64,000 nucleotides of DNA from Eledone cirrhosa (taxonomy: Eukaryota). Under the pieces are notes generated by a model. It made no database searches. It had not been told where the DNA came from and saw only the letters and a program-made list of their open reading frames with translations. The DNA lies in NCBI GenBank assembly GCA_964016885.1, contig OZ024741.1, forward strand, positions 312,356,001 to 312,420,000. The letters run 5' to 3'. Position numbers and translations under genes: made by a program. How positions within the stretch are numbered: position 1 is the first letter of the stretch; each line of letters starts with the position of its first letter. Positions 145 to 59,865 of the stretch are shown one piece after another.

Positions 145-366
145 GTGAATCTGGTCCCTTACGATCCAGAGTTGACATTGCACTCAGTGCTCCTGTGGGA
201 GCCCCTACATGGACACACTGGAAGAGGATTACCAAGGTTAACGTATGTTGATGCCCTAAGGACAGACACTGATCTGTTGGAGACACGGGACATGGAAGCG
301 ATAATTAGGGACAGAGACCAATGGAGAGAACTCGTCCATGGATCTCGGGAATTTTACCCGCCCTAG
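145..366 (+). pseudogene. 3' fragment of RTE-type LINE ORF
   Basis: Translation VLLWEPLHG..GRG.PRLTYVD.L..D...M...RDRDQWRELV resembles the C-terminus of RTE-clade proteins. Confidence 0.65.
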
Positions 367-374
367 ATATATAT

Positions 375-425
375 GCATTTAGAAATATTTGAACTATTTC
401 ATTCAAATGTAATCATCAGGAAAGC
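375..425 (-). ncRNA. degenerate hammerhead ribozyme core related to the 8052/14096 family
   Basis: Minus strand reads ttcCTGATGAttacatttgaatGAAAtagttc, versus ttcCTGATGAtttctaatgaatGAAAcagttc in the intact family; stems I and III do not form cleanly. Confidence 0.4.
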
Positions 426-500
426 CGTATCCAGATGAACAACCTTGGATGAAACATTTCTAGTCTTGTAGAAGCGATTTCTATATTAAACATCATATTT

Positions 501-4762: not shown

Positions 4763-5152
4763 AGGAGGTGAGTTTTATTGTAGCACAATAAAGCAATGCA
4801 AATATCGGTTAAGTAGCACTCTACAGTTTGTAGGACTGGAGTATAAATAATATAAGATCAAAAGATGGTTAAAAGAGTTCCAAGTATTTTATTATGCGCA
4901 TTTCAAAAACAAATATCATCATGGGATGATATCTGCGTTCTCATCAGATAAAATAGGGAGACATGATATGAAGCTTCAAAAACACTTGTGAATAGTGAAG
5001 TTTTTAATCAACATATGTTGATCTAAAACTTCACTATTCACAAGTGTTTTTGAAGCTTCATATCATGTCTCCCTATTTTATCTGATGAGAACGCAGATAT
5101 CATCCCATGATGATATTTGGAACTCTTTTAACCATCTTTTGATGTTATATTA
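4763..5152. mobile_element. foldback element A in (TA)n, putatively PLE-derived
   Basis: Palindrome centred at 5014/5015 with arms 4848-5014 and 5015-5152; ~85-bp tail on the left only; contains a hammerhead. Confidence 0.75.
4885..4955 (-). ncRNA. type I hammerhead ribozyme with minimal palindromic stem III
   Basis: tattttat-CTGATGA-stem II (atatcatc/gatgatat)-GAAA-tgcgca-TA-ataaaata; 8-bp stem I. Confidence 0.85.
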
Positions 5153-5166: not shown

Positions 5167-5638
5167 AGTATAGAACCAGTTTGAAACTAGTTAGACCATT
5201 ACTCTACACAGTACTCGATACTTGACATAGTAGAGTATGAGAATCCAGCCAGATCTACCTATAAACATACATGATTTGAAGAATACTTCGAGTGAGACGC
5301 TTAATCTCAAGTCTGGTTTCCTAAAATCTATAACCAACTCACCATTTAGACTGAGTGCTCGGTTATTTTGGGATATAACCTCCCGTTTTTTACCACCACA
5401 TATGTATATATATGTATATAATGGGAGGTTATATCCCAAAGTAGCAGAGCACTCAGTCTAAATGGTGAGTTGGTTATAGATTTTTGGAAATTAAACTTGA
5501 GATTAAGCCTCTCACCCGAAGCATTATTCAAACCATGTATGTTTATAGGTAGCTCTGGCTGGATTCTCATAATCTACTGTGCCAAGTATCGAGTACTCTG
5601 TAGAGTCATGGTCTAACTAGTTTCAAACTGGTTCTACA

Positions 5639-5640
<2 letters not shown>
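5167..5640. repeat. foldback element B, ~220-bp inverted arms around a short TA tract
   Basis: Arms ~5167-5387 and ~5421-5640 are diverged reverse complements; (TA)n on both flanks. Confidence 0.85.
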
Positions 5641-5675
<35 letters not shown>

Positions 5676-5867
5676 TTAGGTTTGTTGGTTCACCACTGGA
5701 TAGAACTGGTCATTCCGTATGGTCAATCCTGGTGTAATTTTGTGAAGAGTATTCAACGCAGTGCAGTTCACCCATCTTCGTTTGTGTAGTTGGTGGTGCG
5801 AATACGGAGTTAATTATAAATGAAATAACAGGAGGCTGGACTGGTGTAAATCCTTGAAAGGTTTATT

Positions 5868-5925
5868 ATACTATGATCATTTCAATGACCGGGTTCCATA
5901 TGAATCCGCTGATATCATCAGGTAT
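5868..5925 (-). ncRNA. type I hammerhead ribozyme
   Basis: atac-CTGATGA-imperfect stem II-GAAA-tgatca-TA-gtat. Confidence 0.7.
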
Positions 5926-7078
5926 TGAAATATAACAAAGGAATATGTAAAAAGCCATGGGCCCGAAAAATCAAAGACAGAGAGGACTGCTGACCAACTA
6001 GCTTCTCTGCCAGCCGCCCTCAAATGTTGGCAGCTGAAAACTACCAATGAATATCTGGTGAGGGGGCGAAGGCTTATAATGCGCTACCACCACTCTATAT
6101 TGATTCTTATTTACCTTTATTAATTTTTTTACTATCTCATTAATGTATATATTTTTTTTTAAATTATTTTATTAATGTATTTTTATCAATGTATTCTATC
6201 TTTATATTGGTTTTTATCTTTGTATGCTGCTTTCATTATTTTTTCATTTTTTCTTATTTTATCGTATTTTTTTGTAACTTTTCCTTACTCAGGTCATTAT
6301 GCACCTTTCATAGCCCCCTACCCACCTAAGAACCACATTACCTATAACCCGGACTAACTGGGACTTTAAAATAATTTTGGTCTATTTGCACTTTTCATTG
6401 GGTTGTTACCTTCGACTTGTGTGGTGGCTTTTCCCTGCTGCGCGCTGGGCACTCGGAAAATTCAGCCTTCCTTGAGTGCTCGGAAAAATTAATTTCCATT
6501 TCTTTTGCTGGACGATACCACTCGAGACTGGCTGACTCATGGTGGTGGGTGTGCTGGCGGGGCCTTCCTATCGAATTCTTTACTCTATATCCCATACTAA
6601 TATCTTATCGAGTTAAACATTTTTTTCATATAAGACTCTCTCCGTAAGTTCATTAAATAAATAAATCTCGCTACTTCAATTCACCATTTTGCAATTAAAT
6701 ATTTTTAATTTAATTTAATTTCATCCTATAACTCGCAACATAAGTTTAACGTTCCAATCTTCGGTTCACACATTAGACCATACAGACACTCATTATAGAT
6801 TCTTTGGGTAGCATTTTTTTCGCAGCATTTTCTAACATGAATGTAGTTTGACTCTTACACTACACTTCATTCTCCCTTTCTTTCTTTCTTCCCCTCCTTC
6901 TTTTACGGGGTGGTGGTAGCGCATTATAAGCCTTCGCCCCCTCACCAGATATTCATTGGTAGTTTTCAGTTGCCAACACTTTGAGGGCGGTTGGCTGAAA
7001 GGCTAGTTGGTCAGCCGTCCTCTTTGTCTCTGATTTTTCGGACCCATGGCTTTTTACATATTCCTTTGTTATATTCTA

Positions 7079-7136
7079 ATACCTGATAATATCACCCGAT
7101 TCATATGGAATCCGGTCATTGAAATGATCATAGTAT
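7079..7136 (+). ncRNA. hammerhead copy with mutated core (CTGATAA)
   Basis: atac-CTGATAA-...-GAAA-tgatca-TA-gtat; G8A relative to the left-arm copy. Confidence 0.55.
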
Positions 7137-7182
7137 AATAAACCTTTCAAGGATTTAAACCAGTCCAGCCTCCTGTTATTTC

Positions 7183-7272
<90 letters not shown>

Positions 7273-7391: not shown

Positions 7392-7660
7392 TATATATAT
7401 ATATATTATGGATGTTGAGACTCTAGTCTTCATTAAGAAATCTCTCTAGAAGAAGGTCACTCTTATATAATAAACCTTGCAAGTTCCTTTGTATCCAATG
7501 ATGTAGACCAGTTCTTCTTTTGCGGAAATGCATTCGAGTTTCAGGGAGTGGGATTGGATGCGTGCAAAGCCTTTCCTCACTTCAAATAGCTGCATGCACA
7601 GACATTGCTCAATAAGTGATATTTTTGCGATGCATGTTGTTGCTGGTCATAGGCAAGTAC

Positions 7661-7721
7661 TCAGTATATTACTGGTACTTTATTTTATCGACCCCGTAAG
7701 GATGAAAGGCAAAGTTGACCT
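7661..7721 (-). mobile_element. SINE fragment
   Basis: ctggtactttattttatcgaccccgtaaggatgaaaggcaaagttgacctc matches the family body. Confidence 0.75.
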
Positions 7722-8051
7722 CTCATCCTTACGGGGATATATTGTATATATATTAATAAAATATCGGTGGCCATTTTCAGTTGATTCAGATTTATTTAAC
7801 TCCGTTATACATATTTCGCTAAGGATTATCTTTTATTAACATATAATGATCCGGCTTGCACCACTTATACAGATTGTTGAACGCTTTTTTTTCTCTGGTT
7901 AACAACCGACAGTCCATAATGTTCGGTTAACACCATACTCTAATTATATATATATATATATATATATACGTTATTCCGAGTTGAATCGGAGGTAACCACA
8001 GTAAGTAAGGTACTCAATACATAGCAGAGTATAATAGTTTTAATATAGAAG

Positions 8052-8102
8052 AGATTCTACAGGACTAGAACTGTTTCATTCATTAGAAATCATCAGGAAT
8101 CT
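8052..8102 (-). ncRNA. type I hammerhead ribozyme (family D)
   Basis: agattc-CTGATGA-tttctaatgaat-GAAA-cag ttctagtc ctg-TA-gaatct. Confidence 0.85.
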
Positions 8103-8554
8103 GGGTATCAAAAAATAAATATGGTATTTATAGGTCTCTACAAGTGGTAGGAGAGGGTGGGGAGTGGGATGGGTGCAGGTCATTGGTTGATAGAGAAGGG
8201 AATTCATTAAAGGCTAATTCTACATAGCTATAGTTAAATTATATTTATTTATGTTTTTAGAGTAACAAAGGCAGACAGAAATCTATAAACAAGTTCCGGA
8301 TGGCATACCATTCCTTGTCAATAAGTTTCTCTTAAGCTAGCAGATGTCTATAAAATCAGTGGGGGGTCATTCATGCTCGATAGAATTAAAGGAAAGGGAG
8401 ATTCTTTAAAAGCTAAAGTCATTAAGTTCTGCTAAGTGACAAAGGTCTAGGGAATTCTGCAGACAGATTCAAAATACTGAGTGCATATCTTACTATTATC
8501 TTCGAACTTCTCTTAAACTAATCAACAATATGCCAAATCAACAGACACATTCAC

Positions 8555-8585
<31 letters not shown>

Positions 8586-8609
8586 ACACCTGAAAAAAAA
8601 AAACCAAAA

Positions 8610-8809
8610 AAACACACATACTCACTCACACACTTACGCGCAACCATAAACACACACATAAACACAAATACACACATAAAAACACACACACATATATAAA
8701 AAAAGTATATAAATATATACAAATATATATTCATGTACACGCACATACATACACATATACATACATACATACATATATAAAATACATATACACATATACA
8801 TACGCACAC

Positions 8810-8905
<96 letters not shown>

Positions 8906-9020
8906 CACACACATACATATACATATATACACATATATATATATATACACACACATACACACACACACACATACATACATATATATATACACATACATAT
9001 ACACACATACATATATATAC

Positions 9021-9061
<41 letters not shown>

Positions 9062-9067
9062 CATACA

Positions 9068-9101
<34 letters not shown>

Positions 9102-9238
9102 CACACACACACGGATACACACACACATACACACACATACACACATACACACATATATATATACACAAGTGAATACACTCACACGCATACATACAAACAC
9201 GAGTATACATATGTATAAATATCTATACACACACACAT

Positions 9239-9294
<56 letters not shown>

Positions 9295-9355
9295 ATATAC
9301 ACACATACACATACATACACACACACATACACATATATACACATACATACACATA

Positions 9356-9396
<41 letters not shown>

Positions 9397-9406
9397 ATAT
9401 ATACAT

Positions 9407-9455
<49 letters not shown>

Positions 9456-9516
9456 TACATACACACACACACATATACATACATATATATATATCTCTCT
9501 AAACACACACATACAA

Positions 9517-9561
<45 letters not shown>

Positions 9562-9717
9562 CATGTATATATATATATATATATACACACACATATATAT
9601 ATATACATACATATATCCATACATACACAAACATACACATGCATACACAGACCTATACATAAATATACACATATATATACAGAGATATAACGCACAAATA
9701 CACACACATATATACAT

Positions 9718-9785
<68 letters not shown>

Positions 9786-9801
9786 GCATACACACACACA
9801 T

Positions 9802-9833
<32 letters not shown>

Positions 9834-9929
9834 TTACACACACACACGCGTGCATACACACATACACACACCCACACACAAAATATATATACACACACAC
9901 ATTCTCTCTCTCATGCACATATATACATA

Positions 9930-10000
<71 letters not shown>

Positions 10001-10252
10001 ATGCATATATACACAGACACATACAAATACATACATACACACACATACACATACACATACATACATACATATATATATATACATATATATACATATATAT
10101 ATATATACACGCATGCATATACATATACACATACATATACATACACATACGTACATACACACACACACATATATGTACATATACACTCACAAATACACAC
10201 ACATATATATACACACATATATACATATACATACATACAAACACATACATAT

Positions 10253-10295
<43 letters not shown>

Positions 10296-10332
10296 CACAC
10301 ATATACACACATACAGACACGCACACGCACAC

Positions 10333-10379
<47 letters not shown>

Positions 10380-10445
10380 TATATATACATATATATATAC
10401 ACATATATATATATACACATAAATATATATATATATATATATCCA

Positions 10446-10483
<38 letters not shown>

Positions 10484-10620
10484 CATATACATACACATAC
10501 ATATACACATACACACATATATACAGACAAATATATACACACACACATATACAAACATACATATACATACACATACATACACACACACATATACATACAC
10601 ATACATATACGTACATATAC

Positions 10621-10677
<57 letters not shown>

Positions 10678-10815
10678 TACATATACATACATACACACAC
10701 ATACATACATACATACAAACATAAATACAGACACATACAAACATATACCTGCATAAATATACACACATAAAACACGTATTCACACAAACATATGTATATA
10801 TACACATATATACAT

Positions 10816-10866
<51 letters not shown>

Positions 10867-11030
10867 TACATACATATATATATATATATATACATACATA
10901 TATATATACACATACACATACATATATATATACACACACAACACATACACATATACACATATACAAACAAATATATACACATACAAGTAAATAGGTACTC
11001 AGTAAATATACGCATATACACAGGCACATA
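8610..11030. repeat. (TA)/(CA)/(TACA) microsatellite mosaic, mirrored at 11469-13580
   Basis: Read directly; unique interruptions recur in reverse-complement order in the other arm. Confidence 0.95.
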
Positions 11031-11163
11031 AAGACACCTCTACAGGCAGAAAAAGTAGATACAAAAGAGGTACTCACATGACCATAGTGGCCGTATTTCA
11101 GGTTGAGGAGGGGTGGGGGTAGGGTGGGGAGGAGGTATAGGGGCCAATAGGGGGAGGTCGTTT

Positions 11164-11469
11164 TTAGCCATCGGGCTTTAACACTGGCTTAAAGTGTTTG
11201 AATGTTGCAAAGTTCTTGTGCATGCAGTTCGGGCAGTGTTCAGAGAGTTTGTTCAGTAGCGGGCCCTTGGCGAATAAAATTTCGTAACTCTCTGAAATAC
11301 AAAGGTCGCAGCCCTTGTGTCCTCCGTCGTAAGAGCGCGCTTTCTGGAGTATTTTCCAATTAAGCGTGAAGGGGGTGGAGTTCCTTTTGAGGTCCCAAAC
11401 GTAGGAGGCGAGTGTTGTTTGGTTTGATTTATCCGGTCTTCTGAAGGAGTGGGTATGGGCATACCAGCG
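11164..11469 (-). pseudogene. C-terminal part of a PLE GIY-YIG endonuclease
   Basis: R..AH..SF......[12 protein letters not shown]....F.LNWKIL.KA......CDLCISE...I.....LLNK.SE....CMH; R/H and CxLC..E..LN..CxH motifs; frame open to the stop. Confidence 0.85.
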
Positions 11470-11539
11470 TATATGTTTGTATGTGTCTGTATTTATGTTT
11501 GTATGTATGTATGTATGTGTGTGTATGTATGTATATGTA

Positions 11540-11596
<57 letters not shown>

Positions 11597-11733
11597 GTAT
11601 ATGTACGTATATGTATGTGTATGTATATGTGTGTGTGTATGTATGTGTATGTATATGTATGTTTGTATATGTGTGTGTGTATATATTTGTCTGTATATAT
11701 GTGTGTATGTGTATATGTATGTGTATGTATATG

Positions 11734-11771
<38 letters not shown>

Positions 11772-11837
11772 TGGATATATATATATATATATATTTATGT
11801 GTATATATATATATGTGTATATATATATGTATATATA

Positions 11838-11878
<41 letters not shown>

Positions 11879-11915
11879 GTGTGCGTGTGCGTGTCTGTAT
11901 GTGTGTATATGTGTG

Positions 11916-11956
<41 letters not shown>

Positions 11957-12206
11957 ATATGTATGTGTTTGTATGTATGTATATGTATATATGTGTGTAT
12001 ATATATGTGTGTGTATTTGTGAGTGTATATGTACATATATGTGTGTGTGTGTATGTACGTATGTGTATGTATATGTATGTGTATATGTATATGCATGCGT
12101 GTATATATATATATGTATATATATGTATATATATATATGTATGTATGTATGTGTATGTGTATGTGTGTGTATGTATGTATTTGTATGTGTCTGTGTATAT
12201 ATGCAT

Positions 12207-12275
<69 letters not shown>

Positions 12276-12371
12276 TATGTATATATGTGCATGAGAGAGA
12301 GAATGTGTGTGTGTATATATATTTTGTGTGTGGGTGTGTGTATGTGTGTATGCACGCGTGTGTGTGTGTAA

Positions 12372-12403
<32 letters not shown>

Positions 12404-12419
12404 ATGTGTGTGTGTATGC

Positions 12420-12471
<52 letters not shown>

Positions 12472-12624
12472 ATGTATATATGTGTGTGTATTTGTGCGTT
12501 ATATCTCTGTATATATATGTGTATATTTATGTATAGGTCTGTGTATGCATGTGTATGTTTGTGTATGTATGGATATATGTATGTATATATATATATGTGT
12601 GTGTATATATATATATATATATAC

Positions 12625-12670
<46 letters not shown>

Positions 12671-12731
12671 TTGTATGTGTGTGTTTAGAGAGATATATAT
12701 ATATGTATGTATATGTGTGTGTGTGTATGTA

Positions 12732-12780
<49 letters not shown>

Positions 12781-12790
12781 ATGTATATAT

Positions 12791-12831
<41 letters not shown>

Positions 12832-12892
12832 TATGTGTATGTATGTGTATATATGTGTATGTGTGTGTGTATGTATGTGTATGTGTGTATAT

Positions 12893-12954
<62 letters not shown>

Positions 12955-13089
12955 ATGTGTGTGTATAGATATTTATACATATGTATACTCGTGTTTGTAT
13001 GTATGCGTGTGAGTGTATTCACTTGTGTATATATATATGTGTGTATGTGTGTATGTATGTGTATGTGTGTGTGTATCCGTGTGTGTGTG

Positions 13090-13123
<34 letters not shown>

Positions 13124-13129
13124 TGTATG

Positions 13130-13178
<49 letters not shown>

Positions 13179-13293
13179 GTATATATATGTATGTGTGTAT
13201 ATGTATGTGTATATATATATGTATGTATGTGTGTGTGTGTGTATGTGTGTGTATATATATATATATGTGTATATATGTATATGTATGTGTGTG

Positions 13294-13383
<90 letters not shown>

Positions 13384-14011
13384 GTGTGCGTATGTATATG
13401 TGTATATGTATTTTATATATGTATGTATGTATGTATATGTGTATGTATGTGCGTGTACATGAATATATATTTGTATATATTTATATACTTTTTTTATATA
13501 TGTGTGTGTGTTTTTATGTGTGTATTTGTGTTTATGTGTGTGTTTATGGTTGCGCGTAAGTGTGTGAGTGAGTATGTGTGTTTTTTTTTTTTTTTTTTTT
13601 TTTAGGTGTGGTTTTTTTTTTTTTTTCTTTTTTTTTTTTTTTTGTGAATGTGTCTGTTGATTTGGCATATTGTTGATTAGTTTAAGAGAAGTTCGAAGAT
13701 AATAGTAAGATATGCACTCAGTATTTTGAATCTGTCTGCAGAATTCCCTAGACCTTTGTCACTTAGCAGAACTTAATGACTTTAGCTTTTAAAGAATCTC
13801 CCTTTCCTTTAATTCTATCGAGCATGAATGACCCCCCACTGATTTTATAGACATCTGCTAGCTTAAGAGAAACTTATTGACAAGGAATGGTATGCCATCC
13901 GGAACTTGTTTATAGATTTCTGTCTGCCTTTGTTACTCTAAAAACATAAATAAATATAATTTAACTATAGCTATGTAGAATTAGCCTTTAATGAATTCCC
14001 TTCTCTATCAA

Positions 14012-14073
14012 CCAATGACCTGCACCCATCCCACTCCCCACCCTCTCCTACCACTTGTAGAGACCTATAAATA
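14012..14073 (+). promoter_or_regulatory. possible pLTR promoter (CCAAT and TATAAATA) upstream of the hammerhead
   Basis: CCAAT at 14012 and TATAAATA at 14066-14073; also present in the mirrored arm and in the 59.5-kb copy; motif match only. Confidence 0.3.
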
Positions 14074-14095
14074 CCATATTTATTTTTTGATACCC

Positions 14096-14146
14096 AGATT
14101 CCTGATGATTTCTAATGAATGAAACAGTTCTAGTCCTGTAGAATCT
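14096..14146 (+). ncRNA. type I hammerhead ribozyme (family D)
   Basis: Identical to 8052-8102; predicted cleavage after 14140 (GUA). Confidence 0.85.
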
Positions 14147-14209
14147 CTTCTATATTAAAACTATATATATATATATATATATATTCTTACATTTAACGAC
14201 AATAATTCA

Positions 14210-14381: not shown

Positions 14382-15027
14382 CAACACCACCAAGATAGCT
14401 TGGTGAGGAGGGTGATATTTGGACCCCCTGCGGGATGAAATACAAAGCCAGAGAAACTGCGGAGGAACTCAGCAGAGTCAACGGCCATCCAAATAGTACT
14501 TTTTTTTCACCTAGGAGTGAAAGGGCACCCTGTTGTTTTTTGCAACACCTTTCTAAGAGAGGAAAACTCTGAAAAAATAACTGCGGCTTCTGAAGCATCC
14601 GATGATGTTGACCAGTTCTCCTTTTCGGGCAGTGATTTCAATTCTCAGAGAGTGGGATTGGTCGAGTGACAGCCTTTTCTTAAAGCATTCAAAGTACAGA
14701 AATTGCTTGTTCAGGATCTGTTACAAGCGATTGCAATATTCTTAACAGAGTTTGCAACCGTCATACACACATACACACACACACACAGACACACGCGCAC
14801 ACAGACATAAACACGGACACACACACATATACATACACACACACTCTCACACACACATATATATATATATATACATATATCAAGTAAGAATATTTTCGAA
14901 ACAGCGAGTGGATTTGAAATTATTAGAAATGTTAGCTATCGCCGTATTTTGACTAAAGAAATTAAAGAAATTATTTAGCCTGATAGTGGGTTTAAGAACC
15001 CTCGGAGAAATGGAAAAAGATGAGTAT

Positions 15028-15099
15028 AGACGTACATGGGAGTCGAACCCACATCTTTGGTTATCCGGACCACTGTGCTTCCATTTACACCAACACATC
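15028..15099 (-). tRNA. tRNA-like cloverleaf (pseudo-tRNA) inside family F
   Basis: 72-nt reverse complement of 15297-15368 with A and B boxes. Confidence 0.55.
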
Positions 15100-15296
15100 A
15101 CCAGTCATTTTCCATTCAAATTAGAAGCTATAAACTTAGCGACTCTAATGTTAAGTAAGAATATTTTCGAAACAGCGAGTGGATTTGAAATTATTAGAAA
15201 TGTTAGCTATCGCCGTATTTTGACTAAAGAAATTAAAGAAATTATTTAGTCTGATAGTGGGGTTATAGCTTCTAATTTGAATGGAAAATGACGGAT

Positions 15297-15368
15297 GATG
15301 TGTTGGTGTAAATGGTAGCACAGTGGTCCGGATAACCAAAGATGTGGGTTCGACGCCCATGTACGTCA
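15297..15368 (+). tRNA. tRNA-like cloverleaf (pseudo-tRNA) inside family F
   Basis: Acceptor gatgtgt/gtacgtc (G-U rich), D arm gtgt/gcac, anticodon arm tggt-ccggata-acca, T arm gtggg-ttcgacg-cccat; C33 is atypical. Confidence 0.55.
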
Positions 15369-15482
15369 ATACTCATCATTTTCAATTTCTCCGAGGGTTC
15401 TTAACCCCACTATCAGGCTAAATAATTTCTTTAATTTCTTTAGTCAAAATACGGCGATAGCTAACATTTCTAATAATATATA

Positions 15483-15698: not shown

Positions 15699-16471
15699 CT
15701 GAAATTATCAGTATAGATAATAATGTTGCAGATATCCATATATACATACAGGTATAAATTAGGTAACAATTATACAATTTTATACCATTACAATATTTTT
15801 GAGATTATCACAAACGAATGAAACTGAATACGACTATTGAATAATATATCGATATACTATATGACACATTGAGATTATATTTGAATATAATGTTCCGAAA
15901 ACATATGGAAGTAACAATCAATATGAGTAGCAAAATTACCTTCACAAATAGTAAAACTTTTACACTACTTATCAGTTTCTGCGTTATTTATCACTGATAT
16001 TCTTACATTTAACGACAATAAATAAATATATATATATATATATATCCAAAATTAAATTAAGGGTGTCATGACTGAGAGACATGCGGCATATCCACTGCTA
16101 TATAAACTCAAATATTCCAATGAATAGATCCGAGTATTTTATATCAACTAGAAATAGATTGACATATATATATATATATAAAATAAACATATGAAACAAT
16201 CACAGGGAATCATTTGTAAAATGTGCAAGCACACATAGCTAGGTAGGTAACTAATTGAAGTTTAACTAGAACTTTAAATATAGATACCTTTTTAAAATTA
16301 TTAACCTCCTTTGTATATATTTCTTTAAATAAAAAATATATTTCACCAATTAATCGGTAAATCACAGTAGTCAAATTCTGGATGGTCACCAAAGGAGAAG
16401 ATCCAACTATCTGTGTTTACACAGCAAATACAAATCTGTGAATGACTCGTACTCCGTGTTGCATTTTTTTT

Positions 16472-21230: not shown

Positions 21231-21413
21231 TGGATTGGCAGTGTCGGTAGAAGGTCGGACGCCATGCTTTCCAGCATAGTTACGTCCCTTTACGATCTGA
21301 GTTCAAATCCCGCCGAGGTTGACTTTGCCTTTCATCCTTACGGGATCGATAAAATAAAGTACCAGTAATGCACTGGGTAATTGCTGGCCTTGTGCCTAAA
21401 GTAGAAACAATTA
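21231..21413 (+). mobile_element. tRNA-derived SINE
   Basis: TGGCAGTGTCGGT A box, GAGTTCAAATCC B box, family body and gaaacaatta end. Confidence 0.9.
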
Positions 21414-21419
21414 TCTACT

Positions 21420-24400
21420 TAACTAGGTTTAACTAGGTATACCTAGCAAGAGCAGAGGGAGAAAAAATAATTGTTCATATTCTTCGTCGCATAGATCAGT
21501 TGAAGGAGGTATATCGAATTGCAAGAGAGTGTGCTAGAGAAAATCGTGAAATACCCTGTCTTATGCCGAAAAGAAGGAGATATAGAGTACTTACTATGAT
21601 AGACTACTGGACGAAGACAATAAATGGGACAGTAAGGGCTTAACGCATGTAGAGCTGACTAAGGGATCAGCTAAGAAGTTGACAGCAGTGAGATAGGTAA
21701 AGCAATTAAGGACATGAAGGTAGAGAGTGCCACTGGACCATCTTGTATATTTGTTGATAGGCTAAAAGCACCCGGCATTGTAGGATATGTGCTAGTCAGA
21801 CATATAATTAATCAAGTAGTACAAGAAAGGTGTCATACCCAATGACTGCAGCAGCAAAGTTTTGTCAACTTCTACAAGGCCTAGGAAGATGCACTAGAGA
21901 GAATAAGAACGGAAGTATCAAGTTGATGGACCATGTCATGAAATTTATTGAAAATATTATAGCATGATTAATTCGGGAGATAATCAAAGTAGATAAGATG
22001 CAGTTTGGGTCTATGCTAGGCAGGACTACGACTGGATAAATGGTGCTAATTGGAAACCATTCAATGTGGGTGTCGGATTCTGCCAAGAATGCGTCTTTCA
22101 GGTATCGTGTTAATTATTTACATGCAAATGATTGACATGCGAACTCGGGCTGGAAGTTGTATCACGACTGGCAAGTGTAAAGTCAGTCGTCTAGAATTTT
22201 CAGACGACATGGTATTCCTTAACTCGGGAGAAGGTAATCACCGAATTGCACTCTATAGGTTTGATGTGGAGTGCTGTATGGCTGGAATGAAAATCAATGC
22301 TGCGAAAACTGAGACACTCGTCGTCTCAAGAAGTCTTGCGTCGTGCAATCTGTATATGAATGGAGTTCGACTGAAACAAGTGGAGAAATTCAAGTATCTC
22401 GGAACGACGTTCACAAACGATGGAACGCATGAGGCTGAATTAAGTGCAAGAATTGCAGGAGCTGGTGCAGTAATGCGCCAGCTTCAGTCGTCGGTAATCA
22501 GAAGAAAAATCCAAACTAGTTATCTACAATACGGTATTCGTGTCAACACTCCTAATGATCATTAATCTTGGGTAATGACCAAACGAATATGATCGTGAAT
22601 ACAAGCGTTAGAAATGTGGGTTCCTCATAAAATAAACATTACTCAGTAGTGTGCGTATCTTGGAGGCAAGGTGTCCAAAGAAGTGTCATTGCTTCTCCGA
22701 ATTGAGAGATTACAGATTTTATGGGCAAACGAAATCGGTAGGAAGCCCAGATACAGACACCGAGCAAGATGGTTGGATAACATCGATGAGTTCATCTGAT
22801 CTAGATTGGAGGTCCAGTTGGGATTCATTTGGAGACGGTTGATTCTGACAAACCCGCCGGAAGTAATGGTTGAAGAACCTTCTCACACCCACTGCCTTCT
22901 CATGAAGAAGAAGAAGAAGAAGAAGAAGAAGAAGAAGAAGAAGAAGAAGAAGAAGAAGAAGAAGAAGAAGAAGAAGAAGAAGAAGAAGAAGAATGCCACT
23001 GATTCCCCCTTTATAGTGCGACAACTGTTTGAGCGGTACTGGATTTTGTAGATAGGGAGAATGCCTTTGACGGTCCCATTCTCTGTAATATGGTGGACAC
23101 TTAGGAAGTTAGATGTATATGAAAGTCTTGTGAGAGCTGTGTGGGTCATGTATAAAAAAGCTGGAAGCCAGTAGAGTGACGAAGGTCAGTTCGATGACCA
23201 CCAAGGCTCAGTCATTAGTCCACTCTTATTCATCACTGTTCTTCACTGTTCTTCACTGAGTATTTCAAAACTGGTACTCCGTGGGTGTTCCTATATTCTG
23301 ATGATCTAGTACTTAAACTGAATCCGTAGAAGAGTAAGGGACAAAACTTCAAACATGCAAGAACCTAGAATTGAAAAGACTAAAACTAATCGCATCAAAG
23401 GCAAAAGGGCTAAGTACGAAAGAGGACAAGAAGTTGATACAATCAGGGAAATGGCTGCGTTCGATATGCCAGGAAAGAGTAGGCAGGAGTTCTATAAGGT
23501 GCACAAAGTACAATCGATGGAGTCACAAGAGATATGGTTGATGCACAGAAGAAGGGAGCCCTAAGAACTTACGTGAAGGAGATTCCTTTAGCTTGCAGGG
23601 AAGCTCCTTAGAAATTATCAACAGCATTTGTTACTTAGGCGATCGAAATCACAATTGTGGAGCATACACTGAAAGTGTGACAACCAGGATCAGAACAGAT
23701 TGGAAGAAGTTTAGAGAGCTGATACCTCTGCTAACAACAAACATTTTCTCGCCCGGAGTGACAGTATGGTGCATATGGGCAAAGGGCAATGCTAAATGGC
23801 AGGGAAACTACGGAAGACATCCGAAGGCTGGAGAGAAATGACGACAGTATGCTCCGATTAATGTGTAATGTTAATGTGCATGGTCGACGTAGAAGAAGTG
23901 AACTGAGAAAAAAACATTACATGAGAGGATTTGGATGAAATGTGCAAAAGAGAGATTACTCTGGTATGGATATGTGATGCGTATGGAAGATAACAGCTGA
24001 ACAACGAAATGCAGAGCAATGGCAGTGGCTGGAACACGAGGAAAAGGCAGACCCAAAAAGCTTGTGATGACAAAGGATCGAATGGGCTGATGCTAATCTG
24101 TGTTAATGAAGACCCGACCATATATCGTAAAATGTGACCCGACCTATCCATGAACTACCACCTACCTCCTACTATTACTCTCCCCACCTGTCCTCCCCAA
24201 TGCGGCATCCACTTCACATACACCCGCGAGAACCACTCATACACTAAATACCTTAGATATCCTCACCATTGGCTAATAGTAGCTGCTTTCTCACCCTATT
24301 TTTCACTCAACCCCTACTAGCAAACCTTATCCCTCACTATCCCATAGCCATCTCTCTAACACGATCCCAATCTCTATCGACCACATCCTTCACTACATCC

Positions 24401-24610
24401 AACCTCACCGTACACTAATCAGCTATCCCTAACCCCTACTCATCCCTAACCCCGCTTCCTATCTCTCCATCACGGCGCATATCTCCACCATGTTGACCAC
24501 CCGTCACACCACTACACCTCATTCACTAATCAGCAACTCCTACCCTTTACTCATTGGCCTGCCAAACAAATCCCCACACATACTTACCTCCCTCCCTTAT
24601 TGTCCCTACT
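21420..24610 (+). mobile_element. composite of decayed RTE-clade LINE fragments with a C-rich 3' region
   Basis: AIKDMK...ATGP, IKLMDHVMK, KMQFG, EFSDDMV, KINAAKTE, QVEKFKYLG, LYSDDLV, CYLGD motifs; frameshifted. Confidence 0.75.
22904..22993. repeat. (AAG)n microsatellite (paralogue at 46673-46735)
   Basis: Read directly from the sequence. Confidence 0.95.
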
Positions 24611-25012
24611 CCAGATTTGGTATGGTTCTGCAGTTGGATTTATGGGCAACCTCCCAAGAGCAGCTGGTGAGAGGAAGTTCACCCACTGTAGATCCCATAC
24701 ATAAAATTATTGAGATAACGCATTAGTTGTTTCAAAAACATAACCTTCTTAGTTCTGGTGATCTACACATTAACGCAAATCAGTACACGCTGCAAAGCAG
24801 TTGGTATTAGGAAATGATAATAATACGGCCGTAGAAAGCTTACTAAATAAAGGGTGAGTAGGACCCTTCAGTTTCTGTCAAAAAACAATTTCTCGATATG
24901 ACCTTGGCCTGTCTGGTAGGACAGTAGCCACGCTTCAGTACTAATTTGTTCTATGTTATACCACCTAACACTCACGTGCAGGGAAAGCGGACGTGAAATG
25001 AAGATTACGATG

Positions 25013-25077: not shown

Positions 25078-25232
25078 CGAAGGAATTGTGGTAAGGAACC
25101 AAATGGACCATAACGCACCAGAGTACTCAATACTTAGGGTAGTAGAGTGGGTAATAGGAAAAGGGAAGACCCCGACGGCAGAGCTCAAGCCGTTTTGACG
25201 GGTAGAGATCTGACGTAGGGGTCTTACCTTTT

Positions 25233-25236
<4 letters not shown>
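25077..25236. mobile_element. mini foldback insert in (TA)n
   Basis: taggaaaagggaagaccccgacggcaga is inverted as tctgacgtaggggtcttaccttttccta; ~80-bp left-only extension. Confidence 0.55.
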
Positions 25237-25965: not shown

Positions 25966-28900
25966 GTTTACCGTACTGTAAGCAAAATATCACATCGGGT
26001 GGAGGGAGCCACGGAGGCTCAAATCGAAAAAGGCTTCGGATGCGTCTGCGCCCGCAAAACCTACATCACCCGAGGAAAAAAAATATGCCACAGTAGACGT
26101 ATTTTTGCCACCCCCCAGGAGGCGAAGTCTCACACTTTGGTAACCCTAAAGAGTGAGGAGAGAGTCTGGCCGCGTCTGTCCTTGCTGGAATCGAGAACAG
26201 GACGACCATGCTGCAAGCACAGCAAATAGTGAGACAGAACTGGTCAGGTATAAGCATGCAAATGCTAATACAAACTGACCAGGAGTGTATCGAGGCTATC
26301 CCCGATATCATAGACCTCGAGGAAGGTCTCCTACTCCCTATAAGCTTGGAAGGAAGGCGCCCAAAATGCTGTCACTGTAGAGCAAAGGGTTACCTCAGGG
26401 CCTTTTGCCCGCAGAAGACAGCGATAAAGAAGCCCCTCCCCCTCCTTCCAATTCCTAGTCCACTGATACCAAGAGCAGGGCAGGCAACAAAGGCAAAAGA
26501 ACCTGCAACGATGAGTAGGAGGACAGCGTCCGTGGCACCCATACCAAGGCCACGGACTACTAAAGCATATGCAGCAGAGGCGGCAACACCAATAGCTACA
26601 TTTGCAGTAGCTGCACCAGCAACAACATCGACGGAAAGGGCTCCACTACCACCACCAACAGCCGTGGAGCATATACACCACCCAGATCCCATGGAATTCG
26701 ACATGGATTCTGAGACGGGAGTGAAGTGGCAAACGGTTTGCAAAGAACAAAAAAAAAACGAAAAAGAAAGAACTCCTTAGCTTAAACCTCCAAAAGCGAT
26801 GGAAAACAAATAGGGGTAAAGGTTACAAGGGGACGCGCAGCAACGCCACCACCATCACCACCAACAACCACCATCACCACCAACAACCACCACACCACCA
26901 CCACCAGCATCACCGCAAACACAACAGAACAAACATACACAACAGCAGCAACAAGAAAACAGCAACAAATCACCCCCCCCCCCCCCCCACAAAAAAAACA
27001 ACATTACACAGCCAGAAACATGGCAAATAAAGAACTCTTAGAACATATAGAGCAGCACACAGACATTACAGACAAAAATTACTACACCACACCAACACAA
27101 AGAACTTTCCCGAAAAATATAAACATTATTTGTTTCTACTTTAGGCACAAGGCCAGCAATTACCCAGTTCATTACTGGTACTTTATTTTATCGACCCCGT
27201 AAGGATGAAAGGCAAAGTCAACCTCGGCGGGATTTGAACTCAGACCGTAAAGGGACGTAACTATGTTGGAAAGCATGGCGTCCGACCCTCTACCGATACT
27301 GCCAATCCACCGAAAAATATAAACATTATTGAAATTAAAATAGAACATTATAAACATTTAAAAGAAAAATTCCCCAACACAGTTGGAGACCTCAGAGTGT
27401 CGGTTACAAAGGGATATACACCGACATCATCTTGGAGACACCCATGACCAGCTAAAGGGATGGTTCGATTGTCCCTTTCCCAAACGATCAGGGTAGGTAA
27501 CCCCTTTTCACTTATTCCATTCGTCACCCAACATGGCCTTACTTAGTAAAAGCAGTATAAATGTACGTGGCCTGAGGTCATCGTGGAAGCAGGGCCACCT
27601 GCTTAACGATCTTCGGCGGCTACGACGTATACGCATCTCCCAGCCGTCCGGGAGCGGGGTTAGGGGTAGATGGAGTTGCTGTGATTTTTGAGAGAAGGTA
27701 CGTCTGTGGTACTGGACGTGACAAGCAGTGAAGGCAATACTTTCAGGCTAATAGCCGTCTACTCCCCAACAGGGGCAGGACGGCCAGATTTTTTCAGACG
27801 TCTAGAGATAGCTCTTTAGTGTTAGTGAGTGACTGGAACGGTATCTTAGATGCACGCTGGGATTATGTGGGGCTAGTAAATAAGGGAGGAGGATGTAAAA
27901 GCCTCACCAAACTGCTCAGACATTTTCAACATGTCTGACAGGTATCGACTAGATTATCCGAATGTGCTAATATGGACATGGGAAAACCGCATCGGGTCAT
28001 CCAGATCGTATCTAGATAGGATATTATGGAGAGAAACAGATAAGGCTAGCGTAGGTTGTCCACAATTGAAAATAGTCGACTACACGAAACACACATTTGG
28101 GATCTGTGAAGTTCAGTTAGATAGACTTAATAGGAAAGGACCTGGAAGCTGGACGCTCTTTCCCGTCACGCAAAGCTTACGGAGACTGGATATTCGAATT
28201 AGCTGACGGGTGCGATCGTCAACAATAAGTGGTGGTTTACCCTGAAAAGGGTAAATGGAGTAAAATCGCTAAGGTTTAGCAAAGAACTAGTGATAGAGGA
28301 AAATAATGTAGAAGGAGAGCTAGTTAGAAAGCTAGAAGAGGCGTTTAGGACAGGCATCCTAACCGACGTGCTTGCAGCGAGATTGGCACTCGATCAATTA
28401 TTCAACGCAATCACGAAGGCTGCGTTGTCAGAGCTAGAGCGCGTGCTCTGAAAGACAAGGGGACAAAAGCAGTCCAATGGCCCAGGGTGGTGGAGGTGCG
28501 ACGTGGCAACAAAGCCACAATTCAATCCTTGCCTGACCCAAACTGGCACGTTACACGAACCCGAGCAGATGTGTGAGGCTTTTTAGCAGCACGTAGCTCA
28601 ATTATTGGAGACGGCGGTGGGTCAGAACGGAGTATGATCTTCAGTGCCGACCTCGAGGGACTACAGCAGCTCTCGACGACCGCAGTGCAGTATTGCGAAA
28701 ACCCGATAACAGCAGGCGAAATACAGGAAGCGATGTCTGACGGCCCGAGGGGTAAATCGCCAGGTTTGGATGGTCTGCTCTACGAGCTTTATGCGTACAT
28801 GCCAGATTTGTTCAGCGACCTCTTGGCAGACATCTACTGCAACTGGCAGCAGAACGGGCATTCCCAGTTGTGTTAGCCGGGAAGCTGTGGCGCTGTTGAA

Positions 28901-30920
28901 AAAATACGCGAACAAAGGGGACGTTATAGACATATTCAAGCCCATAACTCTGTTAATCACAGATTTCAATGTTCTTGGCCAATGTGTTCGCAAAGAGATT
29001 CGCGCTTGTCGTCGGTAATCTGGTAGGAGAGTTGCAGACATGCGCCATTCCAGACAAATCCATCCACGACAACCTCCACCTCATGCGATATATCATAGAG
29101 AAGGTGTTTAAGGAACCTTCCACAGGTGGAGCCCTGATCAACTTAGATCAATCTAAGGTGGCGGTCGCCGAGGCGGCTTGTTTCGGACCCATTTTCAGGG
29201 GTTGGATCCTCACGATGCACAGCGATATCTGCTCAGTTGTGAGGGTGAACTGTCATCTGTCACAGCCACTCAGCATCATGCGCTCGGGAGTCTAGGATTA
29301 TCCCCTCTCGTCGCTCTTGTACGTATTGGCCCCAGAATCGTTACTGCACAAATTGGAGGCGATGAGAGACGTCCCACGCGAACTGGGATGTGGGATGTGC
29401 GTATCGGCTTACGCCAACGACGTTATCGTGGTAGTGTCAAGATCCGGACATGTCCAGATGCTCGGTACCGCTCTCAAGGAATATGAATCAGTTACAGGAA
29501 CAAAGTTAAACCAGGAAGAGTCGGTGAGCTTACAGCTGGGCGCTGGACGGAAGGACCGGTTAAATTGCTCGGGGTCTGGTTCGGTCCGGACCTCCAGATG
29601 GAGAAAAGCTGGAGGGAGATGACGTATAGGGTGGCCTCTTTCACCCAAAAATGGGCCGAGAGCAAGCTGTCCCTGAAAGGTCGGGCAGAGTTGGTGAATG
29701 CGTTCATCGCATCCGTCATCTGCTACCACCTAAACGTTGTACCTTGCCCCGGACTAACTCTGACAAAAATGGAGCGTCTCCTCTTCCTTGACGGTGAACA
29801 GGTGTGGTCACCGTTTGCCAAACGTGTTTTTCCCCAGCTCGTCTAATTAACGGAGCTGCAGTCCTGGATCAGGAAAAGTAGGAGGGATAGTGCTTGGAAG
29901 CTGGAATGTTTCCAAACGTTCACAGCCTTCTACCAGCTGGGCAATAGTATCGGTGGAACATCCTCCTCGGCGTTCTATAGAGGAGTAGTGGAGGGGAAGA
30001 GTGACGACGATCTGGGGGACACCCTGGGCGTCGAAGACGATCAGCTGTTCGCTCTCTTCACGATTACTTTCAGCCCGGGGCCTATGGACAACTTCCAGAA
30101 CTCCCTGGCCTGGCAGCGCTACCGGGAGCATTGCCGGTTCGAGATAAGCACTACAGGCACGAAAGTGCCGTCAGCCGAAGCTGTCCGAGATGCGCACAGA
30201 GCGATGAAAGCGTTGAGCACACGCTTGTTCAGTGTCCGAGCATTGCTGACTTGTGGAGCAATGTCGAATTATTGCTGTCACGTGTAGGACGGATCCGGGT
30301 ATCGACTGACGCCATTGTGCAGATAGCCCCGTGGTCTTCCTTTAAGGAGGAGGAAGGGCAGGCAGTTTTCATCTGCCTGGTGGCCATGGCGAAAGAGATT
30401 GTATGGTGGACAAGATTGAAAGGATTGAATACGGACACTCTCCTCTTCGGCGTATCCCTGATTAACATTTTCAAATTTCACTTGAAGAGGAAAATCAGGG
30501 TGGAGAGGCAAGTGATACCTTCTAGTAAGTTTTTAGAAAGGTGGGTGAATGTAGCGAGAATGGTCCGAGTGAACGGGTCCGCTCTGAATATATGCTTGTA
30601 GTTTGAGGAATGGGAAAAAATTGAGAGAGGGCGCTTGCCCTGGGGGTCAGAATGGCCGTGGTCTTTGGTGTGGTTTTCGCCCCGAGTAACCCTCAGACGT
30701 TTCACCTTATTTGGGAATTTTTCATTGTTTGAATTTTCATTTTTATTGTTTATATATATATATGTTTCTATGTCTTTTTCTTTTCTTATATAAATAATAA
30801 AAATCTTTACACGATCAAAACCCACATCGTACCGTCCTGTACTGTCCTGTGCCGTCTGTAATGTTTTTCTTGATGTCAGCCCTTGTGGCCAATAAAAACA
30901 TCATCATTATTATTATTATT
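25966..30920 (+). mobile_element. Tx1-type LINE copy A, degenerate near-full-length
   Basis: ORF1 knuckle CCHC....YLRAFCP; ORF2 APE, RT (KSPGLDGL, AYAND) and CPRC...HTLVQC; AATAAA and (ATT)n tail. Confidence 0.85.
27131..27309 (-). mobile_element. SINE inserted in Tx1 ORF1 with ~20-bp TSD
   Basis: cgaaaaatataaacattatt at 27111-27130 and 27311-27330. Confidence 0.9.

Positions 30921-39883: not shown

Positions 39884-39923
<40 letters not shown>
34004..39923 (+). mobile_element. Tx1-type LINE copy C, full-length with a few disablements
   Basis: ORF1 ~34213-36158 (CX2CX4HX4C knuckle CVVCGEGTHLRAFC); ORF2 36207-~39623 with APE (SINARGL, SET, GDWN, YLDR), RT and zinc finger; (ATT)n on both sides. 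Confidence 0.92.
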
Positions 39924-39925
<2 letters not shown>

Positions 39926-40003
39926 CTTGAATCTCAGTCATTGATGTTGGTTAACTGGAAAGTCCGTTGGAATGAATATCAAGCTACTACCTGCAGCCTC
40001 AGA

Positions 40004-40263
40004 TATTCTGTGTCTGTAAATTAAAGGTGGAAAACTGGGAGAGGGCACTTGCCCTGGTGGTCAGGGCCACTGTGGTCTTTTAATGGGCTTTCTCCACAAA
40101 TGTCCCTTGGAAGTCTCCCCCCTATTGGGGAATTTTTCTTTGTTATTTTATTTCAACCTCTGTTTTTTTTTACACGCAGAAATGCCCATTTGTACCGTCC
40201 TGTATTGTCCTGTACTGTCCTTAATGTCTACTTTATGTGAACCCTTGTGGTTAATAAAGAAAA

Positions 40264-40308
<45 letters not shown>
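40004..40308 (+). mobile_element. Tx1 3'UTR-only copy with (ATT)n tail
   Basis: Near-duplicate of 39615-39923. Confidence 0.85.
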
Positions 40309-40309
<1 letters not shown>

Positions 40310-40410
40310 GTTTATATTTATTTCCATTATATATATATATATGTTTCTATATATATATATATATATATGTTTCTATGTCATTTTTCTTTTTCGTTTCTTA
40401 TATAAATAAT

Positions 40411-40595
40411 TGTTTCTACTTTAGGCACAAGGTCAGCAATTACCCAGTACATTACTGGTACTTTATTTTATGGACCCCGTAAGGATGAAAAGCAAAGTTA
40501 ACATCGGCGGGATTTGAACTCAGACTGTAAAGGGATGCAACTATGCTAGAAAGCATGGCGTTCGACCCTCTACCGATACTGCCAATCCACCGCCC
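40411..40595 (-). mobile_element. SINE with 17-bp TSD
   Basis: tttcttatataaataat at 40394-40410 and 40596-40612. Confidence 0.92.
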
Positions 40596-40626
40596 TTTCT
40601 TATATAAATAATAAACATCTTTACAC

Positions 40627-48300: not shown

Positions 48301-48390
48301 ACCTACCACTTCCCCATTGGCCTGCCAAACAAATCCCCACACATACCTATAACTTCATACTTATCTCCGTCCCTTATTGTCCCTTCTCCA
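45380..48390 (+). mobile_element. paralogous RTE composite (duplicate of 21420-24610)
   Basis: Colinear with copy 1, including the (AAG)n tract. Confidence 0.75.
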
Positions 48391-48773
48391 GACTTGATTT
48401 ATGGTCAACCTCTCCAGAGCGGTTGGTGAGTTCACCCGCTGTAGATCCCATACATAAAAGAATTGAGATAAACCTTTAGTTGTTTCAAAGACACAACCTC
48501 CTTAGATCTGGTGATCTACACAATAAAAGCAATCAGTACACGCTGCAAAGCAGTCGATGGTAGGAAATGGATACGGCCGTAGAAAGTTTACTAAACGAAT
48601 GATGAATAGGACCCTTCAGTTTGTTTCAAAAATCAACTTCTTGATATGACCTTGGCCTGTCTGATATGTCAGGGGCCATGCGTCAGTACTAATTTGTTCT
48701 ATGTAATACCATGCAACATTTGCTTGCAGATGTAAGCGGACGTGTAATGATGATGATGATGACCTATACACAT

Positions 48774-48813
<40 letters not shown>

Positions 48814-59388: not shown

Positions 59389-59865
59389 CGTTATTCCGGG
59401 TTGAATCGGAGGTAACCACAGTAAGTAAGGTACACAATACATAGCAGAGTATAAAAGTTTTAATATAGATGAGATTCTACAGGACTAGAACATTTCATTC
59501 TTTAGAAATCATCAGGAATCTGGGTATCAAAAAATAAGTATGGTATTTATAGGTCTCTTCAAGTGGTAGGAGAGGGTAGGGAGTGGGATGGGTGTCGGTC
59601 ATTGGTTGATAGAAAAGGGAATTCATTAAAAGCTAATTCTTCAAAGCTATAGTTTATTTTTAGAGTAACAAAGGCAGAAAGAATTCTATAAACAGGTTCA
59701 GGATGGGGTGCCACTCCTTATTTTTAAGTTTCTCTTAAGCTAACAGGTGTCTATAAAATCAGTGGGGGTCAGTCATGGTTGATAGATTTAAACCCAGATT
59801 CCTGATGATTTCTAAAGAATGAAACAGTTCTAGTCCTGTAGAATCTCATCTATATTAAAACTATA
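59389..59865. mobile_element. second family D foldback insertion
   Basis: Same terminus cgttattccg as 7969; ~400-bp left part and ~70-bp inverted arm 59793-59864 ending at the same base as 14164. Confidence 0.85.
59796..59846 (+). ncRNA. type I hammerhead ribozyme (family D); the minus-strand partner at 59472-59521 has a damaged stem III
   Basis: agattc-CTGATGA-tttctaaagaat-GAAA-cag..ctg-TA-gaatct. Confidence 0.85.

Follow-up and report, generated by a model that had tools for sequence, protein, structure and literature searches.

A palindrome with 2.7-kb arms in Eledone cirrhosa is probably a 5'-truncated Hydra-clade Penelope-like element carrying an inverted, tail-less 3' end

We analysed a window of 64,000 nucleotides (nt) from the Eledone cirrhosa genome (assembly GCA_964016885.1, contig OZ024741.1, positions 312,356,001 to 312,420,000 of the forward strand; all coordinates below are window positions). 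The largest self-match in this 64-kb window is the inverted pair 8030-10748 / 14169-11469, with 97.6% identity. Base-level alignment places the true arms at 8034-10748 and 14164-11469, with no mirroring outside them. Read on the minus strand from 11469, the main copy opens with a 101-codon frame and some 185 nt of unique sequence. These are followed by a (TA)/(TG) mosaic of 2.4 kb that includes poly-T, a further 450 unique nt, a predicted hammerhead ribozyme motif (8102-8052), a 65-nt tail and, from 7968, a (TA)n tract. The right arm is a plus-strand copy of the same 3' end without the tail, followed again by (TA)n. The order along the locus is (TA)n, tail, hammerhead end, 5'-truncated body, inverted tail-less copy and (TA)n, which is the inverted terminal repeat with one-sided tail expected of a Penelope-like element (PLE). 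The features are collected in Table 1.

A sequence-only reading of this window had described mirrored 2.7-kb arms that differ mainly in tract lengths and enclose a 720-bp spacer, and the alignment agrees on each count. The spacer measures 720 nt. The unique part of the arms (8034-8554 against 14164-13644) is identical at 521 of 521 positions. Eleven of the 12 indels between the arms lie in dinucleotide or homopolymer tracts, the remaining one being a TG at 9550, and the six mismatches comprise three in a poly-A run, two that represent a shifted C inside an AT tract and one at 9134. When tracts are collapsed, the mosaic 8610-10748 gives 1265 matches, no mismatches and two gaps between the arms. 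Among 936 16-mers that are unique in the left mosaic, 915 are also unique and colinear in the right arm; in the within-arm control, 92 of 565 first-half 16-mers recur in the second half. The match between the arms is therefore not generic microsatellite similarity, and the mirrored arms are real and far beyond chance. The head-to-head junction shows an imperfect microhomology of about 4 nt (11465-11469 to 10748-10751) with a one-base bulge.

Table 1. Features of the palindromic element and of the second family D insertion (window positions)
Feature	Position	Strand	Basis or remark
(TA)n target microsatellite, left flank	7945..7968	.	sequence
65-nt PLE tail, 3' extension on the left arm only	7969..8033	-	same tail in copy 2, ~59389-59453
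Tail hairpin ACTC-stem-loop-stem-TT-GAGT, starting 3 nt past the inverted-arm end	8012..8030	-	motif defined post hoc; folding z-score not significant
Left arm, belonging to the tail-bearing main copy (its 3' part)	8034..10748	-	alignment
Type I hammerhead motif, family D, predicted	8052..8102	-	core and stem pairing
Unique part of family D preceding the hammerhead; searches gave no coding signal	8104..8554	-	
Poly-T and (TA)n/(TG)n microsatellite mosaic, ~2.4 kb of the 3' region	8555..10975	-	49 tracts counted in 8555-10748
Unique flank directly after the endonuclease stop, no hammerhead core	10976..11163	-	weak colinear similarity to the family D terminus
Probable Hydra-clade PLE GIY-YIG endonuclease, C-terminal 101 codons and stop, 5'-truncated at the catalytic Arg	11164..11469	-	
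Head-to-head junction with microhomology	11465..11469	.	
Right arm, inverted tail-less 3'-end copy	11469..14164	+	alignment
Second hammerhead motif copy, in the inverted arm, predicted	14096..14146	+	
(TA)n target microsatellite, right flank	14165..14181	.	sequence
Independent family D insertion of the same layout (copy 2)	59389..59864	-	404-nt tail-bearing main copy (-), 72-nt inverted tail-less arm 59793-59864 (+), flanked by (TA)n left and right

Both arms carry a predicted type I hammerhead of the family labelled D, with a complete core, stems I, II and III of 6, 3 and 4 bp and a GUA cleavage triplet. Complete cores with all three stems lie at 8096 (minus) and 14102 (plus) in the large element and at 59515 (minus) and 59802 (plus) in copy 2. 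The two family D insertions are identical at 370 of 404 aligned positions (92%), tail included, and copy 2 likewise forms a palindrome, a small one, with an inverted arm (59793-59864) that ends at the same nucleotide as that of the large element. The earlier claim that arm end and tail match an independent copy near 59389-59865 is thereby borne out. The 34 substitutions between the copies show no codon-phase bias. We also considered the 450 unique nt as a decayed coding region and rejected this, the six translated frames (X at stops) giving no meaningful Pfam match and no match to a Hydra profile.

The family D hammerhead pattern resembles the Hydra hammerheads in File S2 of PMC8557442, from which it differs in having a loop III of 8 nt instead of 1-3 nt. 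Rfam listed no hammerhead at E<=1, returning microsatellite-driven miRNA matches instead, and the minimum-energy fold of the family D monomer is not the hammerhead. Folding z-scores of the hammerheads and tail hairpins are mostly not significant; these calls therefore rest on motif and pairing and not on stability. PLE hammerheads are reported to show low activity as monomers (PMC4209133). In each of the two family D copies, both termini lie in (TA)n, the Hydra target. Taken together, the hammerhead pattern, the tail hairpin and the (TA)n target fit a Hydra-type identity for the family D end as well. Elsewhere in the window (330-500), two diverged family D hammerhead-like relatives stand head to head (419 minus, ~437 plus), and the plus-strand relative ends in the family D register, before a microsatellite.

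The frame at the junction is open from 11469 to a TAA at 11166-11164 on the minus strand, and similarity to protein relatives also starts at 11469. It had been read as an open GIY-YIG C-terminus cut exactly at the arm start. The open frame and the cut stand, but only the C-terminal half of the domain is present. The fragment starts at the catalytic Arg, retains R, H, E and N together with CxxC and CxH, and contains neither the GIY and YIG strands nor a reverse transcriptase (RT). Without these strands an active nuclease is not possible. A HMMER search found 2637 relatives at E<=0.001 (best 7.5e-21); the best 150 of these are 32-49% identical to the fragment, and 136 of the 150 have the CxxC..E..N..CxH pattern. 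We fetched 266 relative proteins, of which 26 are long (at least 660 aa). All 26 contain an upstream RT with YRDD, together with DK[TS], CxxC/CxH and a CxC-x(4-8)-C linker, and 25 contain an RWK-like motif. The fragment aligns to positions 609-708 of the 712-position profile built from these long relatives, and its nearest Atlas clusters are GIY-YIG fragments (score 0.96). Pfam gave no GIY-YIG match on the fragment; in the relatives, the Pfam match falls on the upstream part. A sub-threshold KDM6_GATAL match was rejected as a matter of cysteine spacing. A PDB sequence search with the fragment returned two matches, both with E>1, and word-index protein searches with the single fragment returned nothing, whereas HMMER and profile searches did find relatives.

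The Hydra clade is defined by CxxC/CxH around E and N, RWK, DKT, CxCX5C and the absence of CCHH (PMC8557442, section 11 and Fig. S7). The fragment motif CDLC..E...N...CMH agrees with the Hydra rows of that figure; by eye, the retained part follows these rows and not those of Penelope, Neptune or Nematis, the two CCHH cysteines falling in the missing GIY-YIG core and RWK, DKT and CxCX5C lying 5' of the truncation point. Judged from its motifs and relatives, the fragment almost certainly belongs to the Hydra clade. The profile of the 26 long relatives found no further Hydra coding sequence and no Hydra RT within the window, so that an intact partner would be encoded elsewhere.

In all likelihood, then, the element is a 5'-truncated, non-functional Hydra-clade PLE copy with an inverted tail-less 3' end in (TA)n, likely recent and likely made by two-ended priming. 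Its earlier identification as a truncated PLE is upheld by the Hydra-clade endonuclease C-terminus, the inverted copy, the tail and the hammerhead. It shares with Hydra-clade elements such as Hydra-1_Obim and Penelope-13_HM the C-terminal endonuclease with CxxC and CxH around E and N, the canonical type I hammerhead near the 3' end and the (TA)n target (PMC8557442), and with Penelope-13_HM the 5'-truncated inverted copy at the 5' end, which is 966 nt long in that family (PMC8557442 supplement). By eye, its hammerhead and endonuclease differ from those of Hydra-1_Obim, which sets it apart as a separate family. Naiad and Chlamys elements have the opposite organization, with an N-terminal endonuclease followed by the RT and no canonical hammerhead; in the palindrome element the endonuclease ends in a stop, and a hammerhead is present. 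Non-LTR retrozymes also carry type I hammerheads derived from PLE termini and are mobilised in trans, but they are described as head-to-tail tandem arrays (bioRxiv 10.64898/2026.07.22.740005). The family D copies are head-to-head PLE termini, with hammerheads on opposite strands and no tandem unit containing them.

The palindromic layout as such is not surprising: it is the standard layout of PLE insertions, and only the size is unusual. According to PMC8557442, PLEs typically target (TA)n, bear a tail at one end and have an inverted, 5'-truncated copy at their 5' end; the same inverted layout is reported for rotifer elements (PMC3846280). The 65-nt tail here exceeds the 30-40 bp quoted in PMC8557442, and the 3' region alone, at about 3.2 kb, is larger than most whole Hydra consensi (<3 kb, given there as a general and not a strict trait). 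Because the target is (TA)n, no target-site duplication is readable.

The layout recurs within the window. From 23 listed inverted pairs we dropped nine (two nested, seven long-range dispersed-repeat pairs) and added one. Sorted by eye, 9 of the 15 pairs so examined end in AT-rich or (TA)n sequence and carry a tail on one side, one is symmetric and five do not fit. Besides the two family D insertions, the tailed palindromes are 4850-5150, 5819-7185, 14919-15477, 25156-25236, 48945-49108, 59960-60453 and 60591-60823, all with AT-rich or (TA)n ends. Arm identity among the other palindromes of the window ranges from 73 to 98%. Complete hammerhead folds are carried by four palindrome families, and those in palindromes 4850, 5819 and 59960 are of type I. 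In all nine tailed palindromes (4850-60823) the tail is on the left and the tail-bearing copy on the minus strand (two-sided chance 0.004 if the insertions are independent), an orientation possibly tied to the direction of host transcription or replication.

Several of these palindromes have features of their own. The symmetric one (5167-5640) has arms 87% identical, each with the hairpin region, and is flanked by (TA)n left and right; it looks as if both of its ends had begun at the distal site. The centre of 59960-60453 (60173-60245) is a tandem of about four self-complementary units of 17-18 nt, suggestive of template switching having occurred repeatedly at the junction. Sequences 14880-15477 and 48945-49108 form one palindromic family, whose larger copy has an internal direct repeat of its own end and, in each arm, a tRNA-like segment (15028-15099 on the minus strand, 15297-15368 on the plus strand) that Rfam scores as tRNA with 37 bits, exceeding its gathering threshold. 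This family is possibly a tRNA-derived short interspersed nuclear element (SINE) captured by a PLE terminus. The start of the right flank of the large element (14181-14205) matches the end of another AT-flanked repeat (~15998-16020), a sign of nested insertions in the same (TA)n tracts.

The tails of unrelated ends carry a hairpin of the form ACTC-stem-loop-stem-TN-GAGT, seen at 8030, 59451, 4842, 25148, ~5810, ~59953, 5236 and 16776 (all minus) and at 6451 (plus). The stems differ in sequence from case to case yet keep their pairing, and MAFFT could not align the hairpins of all tails together. A strict scan of the window gave nine matches, where 0.76 would be expected and none of 100 shuffles had more than 4. 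Three of these served to define the motif, those at 25148, 16776 and 6451 lie in PLE-like ends or spacers, and those at 22250, 46212 and 2744 do not. In relaxed form, loosened after two further cases had been seen, the hairpin occurs 3-8 nt past the short-arm end in six of the nine tailed palindromes (five families), compared with 0.36% of random positions. The motif was fitted post hoc, and the scan numbers therefore overstate its support. By eye, the same hairpin is visible in published Hydra consensi.

We next consider how the endonuclease and the family D end came to share one insertion. Both lie on the same strand and both appear Hydra-type, and one template RNA probably carried both. Either of the two mechanisms weighed below implies a single template, and the physical link is therefore probably real. 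The sequence-only reading had gone further and taken the endonuclease as the autonomous partner of the family D hammerhead. The joint insertion stands, but the partnership is not established by it, the endonuclease fragment occurring once in the window and the 3' region spanning 3.2 kb. From the sequence we favour a single family, in which selection kept the open reading frame (ORF) intact, the proximal end decayed and the distal end was used.

Several findings speak against a single family. Copy 2 stops 2.8 kb short of the endonuclease. The distance from stop to end is about 3.2 kb, roughly tenfold the ~180-310 nt that we find by eye in five published Hydra consensi. The 185 nt that follow the stop are weakly colinear with the family D end (under four scorings, 9, 5, 1 and 0 of 500 shuffles reached the observed score), sharing the blocks C-rich, AAATAC, CCTGTAGA and TGAGTACC. 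A long 3' region whose beginning resembles a decayed terminus could therefore reflect a composite template, in which an element of another Hydra family, the source of the endonuclease and with its own short, since diverged end near 10980, lay in a microsatellite that preceded a family D terminus. The latter would have mobilised a read-through transcript in a one-off capture. The crowding of several different PLE ends into the same (TA)n tracts of the window would favour such an event, and capture between pseudo-long terminal repeats (pLTRs) is known from Pen1_Av of Adineta vaga, which holds a captured spacer of 0.9-1.5 kb between ORF and 3' pLTR (PMC3846280). The spacer here differs from those described for Pen1_Av and Pen2a_Av in being a 2.4-kb microsatellite mosaic that is itself duplicated in the inverted arm. 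On the other hand, neither a hammerhead core nor the ACTC hairpin is present in the post-stop flank, which fades into the mosaic without a clear end. Its similarity to the family D end is marginal once the C-rich block is removed (42 of 1000 shuffles reached the score), and the open frame is what selection would leave if a distal end had taken over from a decaying proximal one. We regard the composite as a serious contender, though a somewhat doubtful one, and single-family origin as the probable history.

For the palindrome itself we lean towards two-ended priming. An intact Hydra RT-endonuclease supplied from elsewhere would cut both strands of the (TA)n tract. The left 3' end would prime a cDNA at the distal start site, tail included, that runs 3.5 kb into the endonuclease gene and stops, and the right 3' end would prime a second cDNA, stopping after 2.7 kb, at an internal site that lies 65 nt further upstream and immediately 5' of the tail hairpin. 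The two cDNA ends would then be joined in head-to-head orientation by microhomology of a few bases, followed by fill-in. The arms would be long because the template had the 2.4-kb mosaic between stop codon and hammerhead end. With two start sites, no extra steps would be needed to account for an inverted arm that, in each family D copy, lacks precisely the tail. In L1 twin priming, two target 3' ends likewise prime two cDNAs that are joined by microhomology, but the second primer starts upstream on the RNA and produces an inversion without duplication; here both cDNAs would begin at the 3' end and give a palindrome.

Biochemical precedent comes from PAc, a Poseidon PLE of Anolis carolinensis, whose protein in vitro cleaves and extends both target strands and whose RT starts at two adjacent internal sites, the tail being the stretch between them (PMC11167929). 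The tail set by two start sites, the AT-rich target, the cutting and extension of both strands and the stem-loop at the start region would all have counterparts in family D. PAc belongs to another clade, and its ORF starts within the hammerhead (PMC11167929), whereas we see no open ORF start in the family D tail. We found no published statement of two-ended priming as a model for PLE palindromes in a search that stopped short of most subscription papers, older PLE reviews among them, and of the supplement of PMC11167929.

The competing account is fold-back, in which a single cDNA stops at 11468, its 3' end anneals near 10749 and copies itself toward the start, and integration trims the product at the internal site. 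Self-priming is the interpretation given to inverted PLE junctions in the Discussion of PMC3846280, and it would leave identical unique arms. Several points count against our preference: the junction microhomology is predicted equally by fold-back, that published interpretation favours it, the short self-complementary units in tandem that make up the centre of 59960-60453 suit it, and the protein studied in vitro is a Poseidon and not a Hydra element (PMC11167929). Fold-back, however, needs an extra step to end both family D copies at the same nucleotide, where two RT start sites have been demonstrated in vitro (PMC11167929), and it could not make a tail-less arm longer than the tail-bearing one. 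Palindrome 5819-7185 hints at just this: the plus strand of its spacer is rich in T (skew 0.29) and carries a tail hairpin, as if the tail-less arm were the longer of two independent cDNAs. This is a single case, and the strand skew of family D itself is weak (0.08 and 0.01), which tells against two-ended priming in turn. We thus judge fold-back possible but the less probable route.

A retained spliceosomal intron in the 3' region, which would bring the spliced region to about 0.7 kb, is an unlikely explanation of the mosaic. A donor-like site (GTGAGT, 11077) and an acceptor-like one (poly-T-YAG, 8590), both on the minus strand, do enclose it, and PLEs are known to retain introns, but the copy has six donor-like matches, so that one is expected by chance, and a second poly-T run follows the acceptor. 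An assembly or sequencing artefact (fold-back read or mis-join) would suit near-identical arms with error-type differences in tracts, but is very improbable, given that the mirror ends exactly at a biological boundary common to an independent copy 45 kb away, that the flanks beyond the arms are unmirrored, and that the layout recurs in diverged palindromes (arms 73-98% alike) and in 9 of 15 inverted pairs. We have little doubt that the palindrome is real and PLE-made.

The insertion is also likely to be recent, as had been proposed. The absence of substitutions at 521 unique and 1265 collapsed positions bounds arm divergence to below about 0.2% (rule of three), compared with arm identities of 73-98% in the other palindromes of the window. 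Gene conversion can maintain arm identity and therefore leaves the age only loosely bounded, which weakens this reading. Recently active PLEs have been reported in Octopus vulgaris (PMC13282606).

The rest of the window contains decayed copies of the long interspersed nuclear element (LINE) type with RVT_1 or zf-RVT matches (21400-25000, 27600-33600, 36300-41600, 45400-48800 and 55000-58200), none of them Hydra RTs. A repeat of about 70 nt occurs at at least nine places (7653-7722, 2349, 4127, 21384, 27156, 33936, 40436, 44148 and 62723), and we presume that it resembles an octopus SINE. A hairpin at 112-174 has a weak mir-133 score (28.7 bits against a gathering score of 55.5) that is probably due to chance.

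As a single locus, the element carries little weight, being a big and young case of a layout and a clade that have both been described before. The window does, however, hold several palindromes in which a shared hairpin keeps a constant spacing from the end of the short arm. These offer a test of two-ended priming against fold-back from sequence data, and the origin of tandem and inverted PLE structures is named as an open question in PMC8557442. The tail hairpin is a candidate cis-signal for RT initiation. We tentatively propose that PLE palindromes arise by two-ended target-primed reverse transcription from two start sites, that in Hydra elements the internal site may be set by the conserved hairpin 3-8 nt downstream, and that this copy may represent a Hydra family that is active and in which microsatellite has swollen the 3' region tenfold. 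With about nine same-facing insertions in 64 kb, the start-site idea is testable at scale in this genome. If the single-family history is true, the autonomous driver of a hammerhead family would be identified, together with a route by which microsatellite mosaics multiply. If the swollen family is indeed active, the element would spread kilobases of its own target sequence and build multi-kilobase palindromes.

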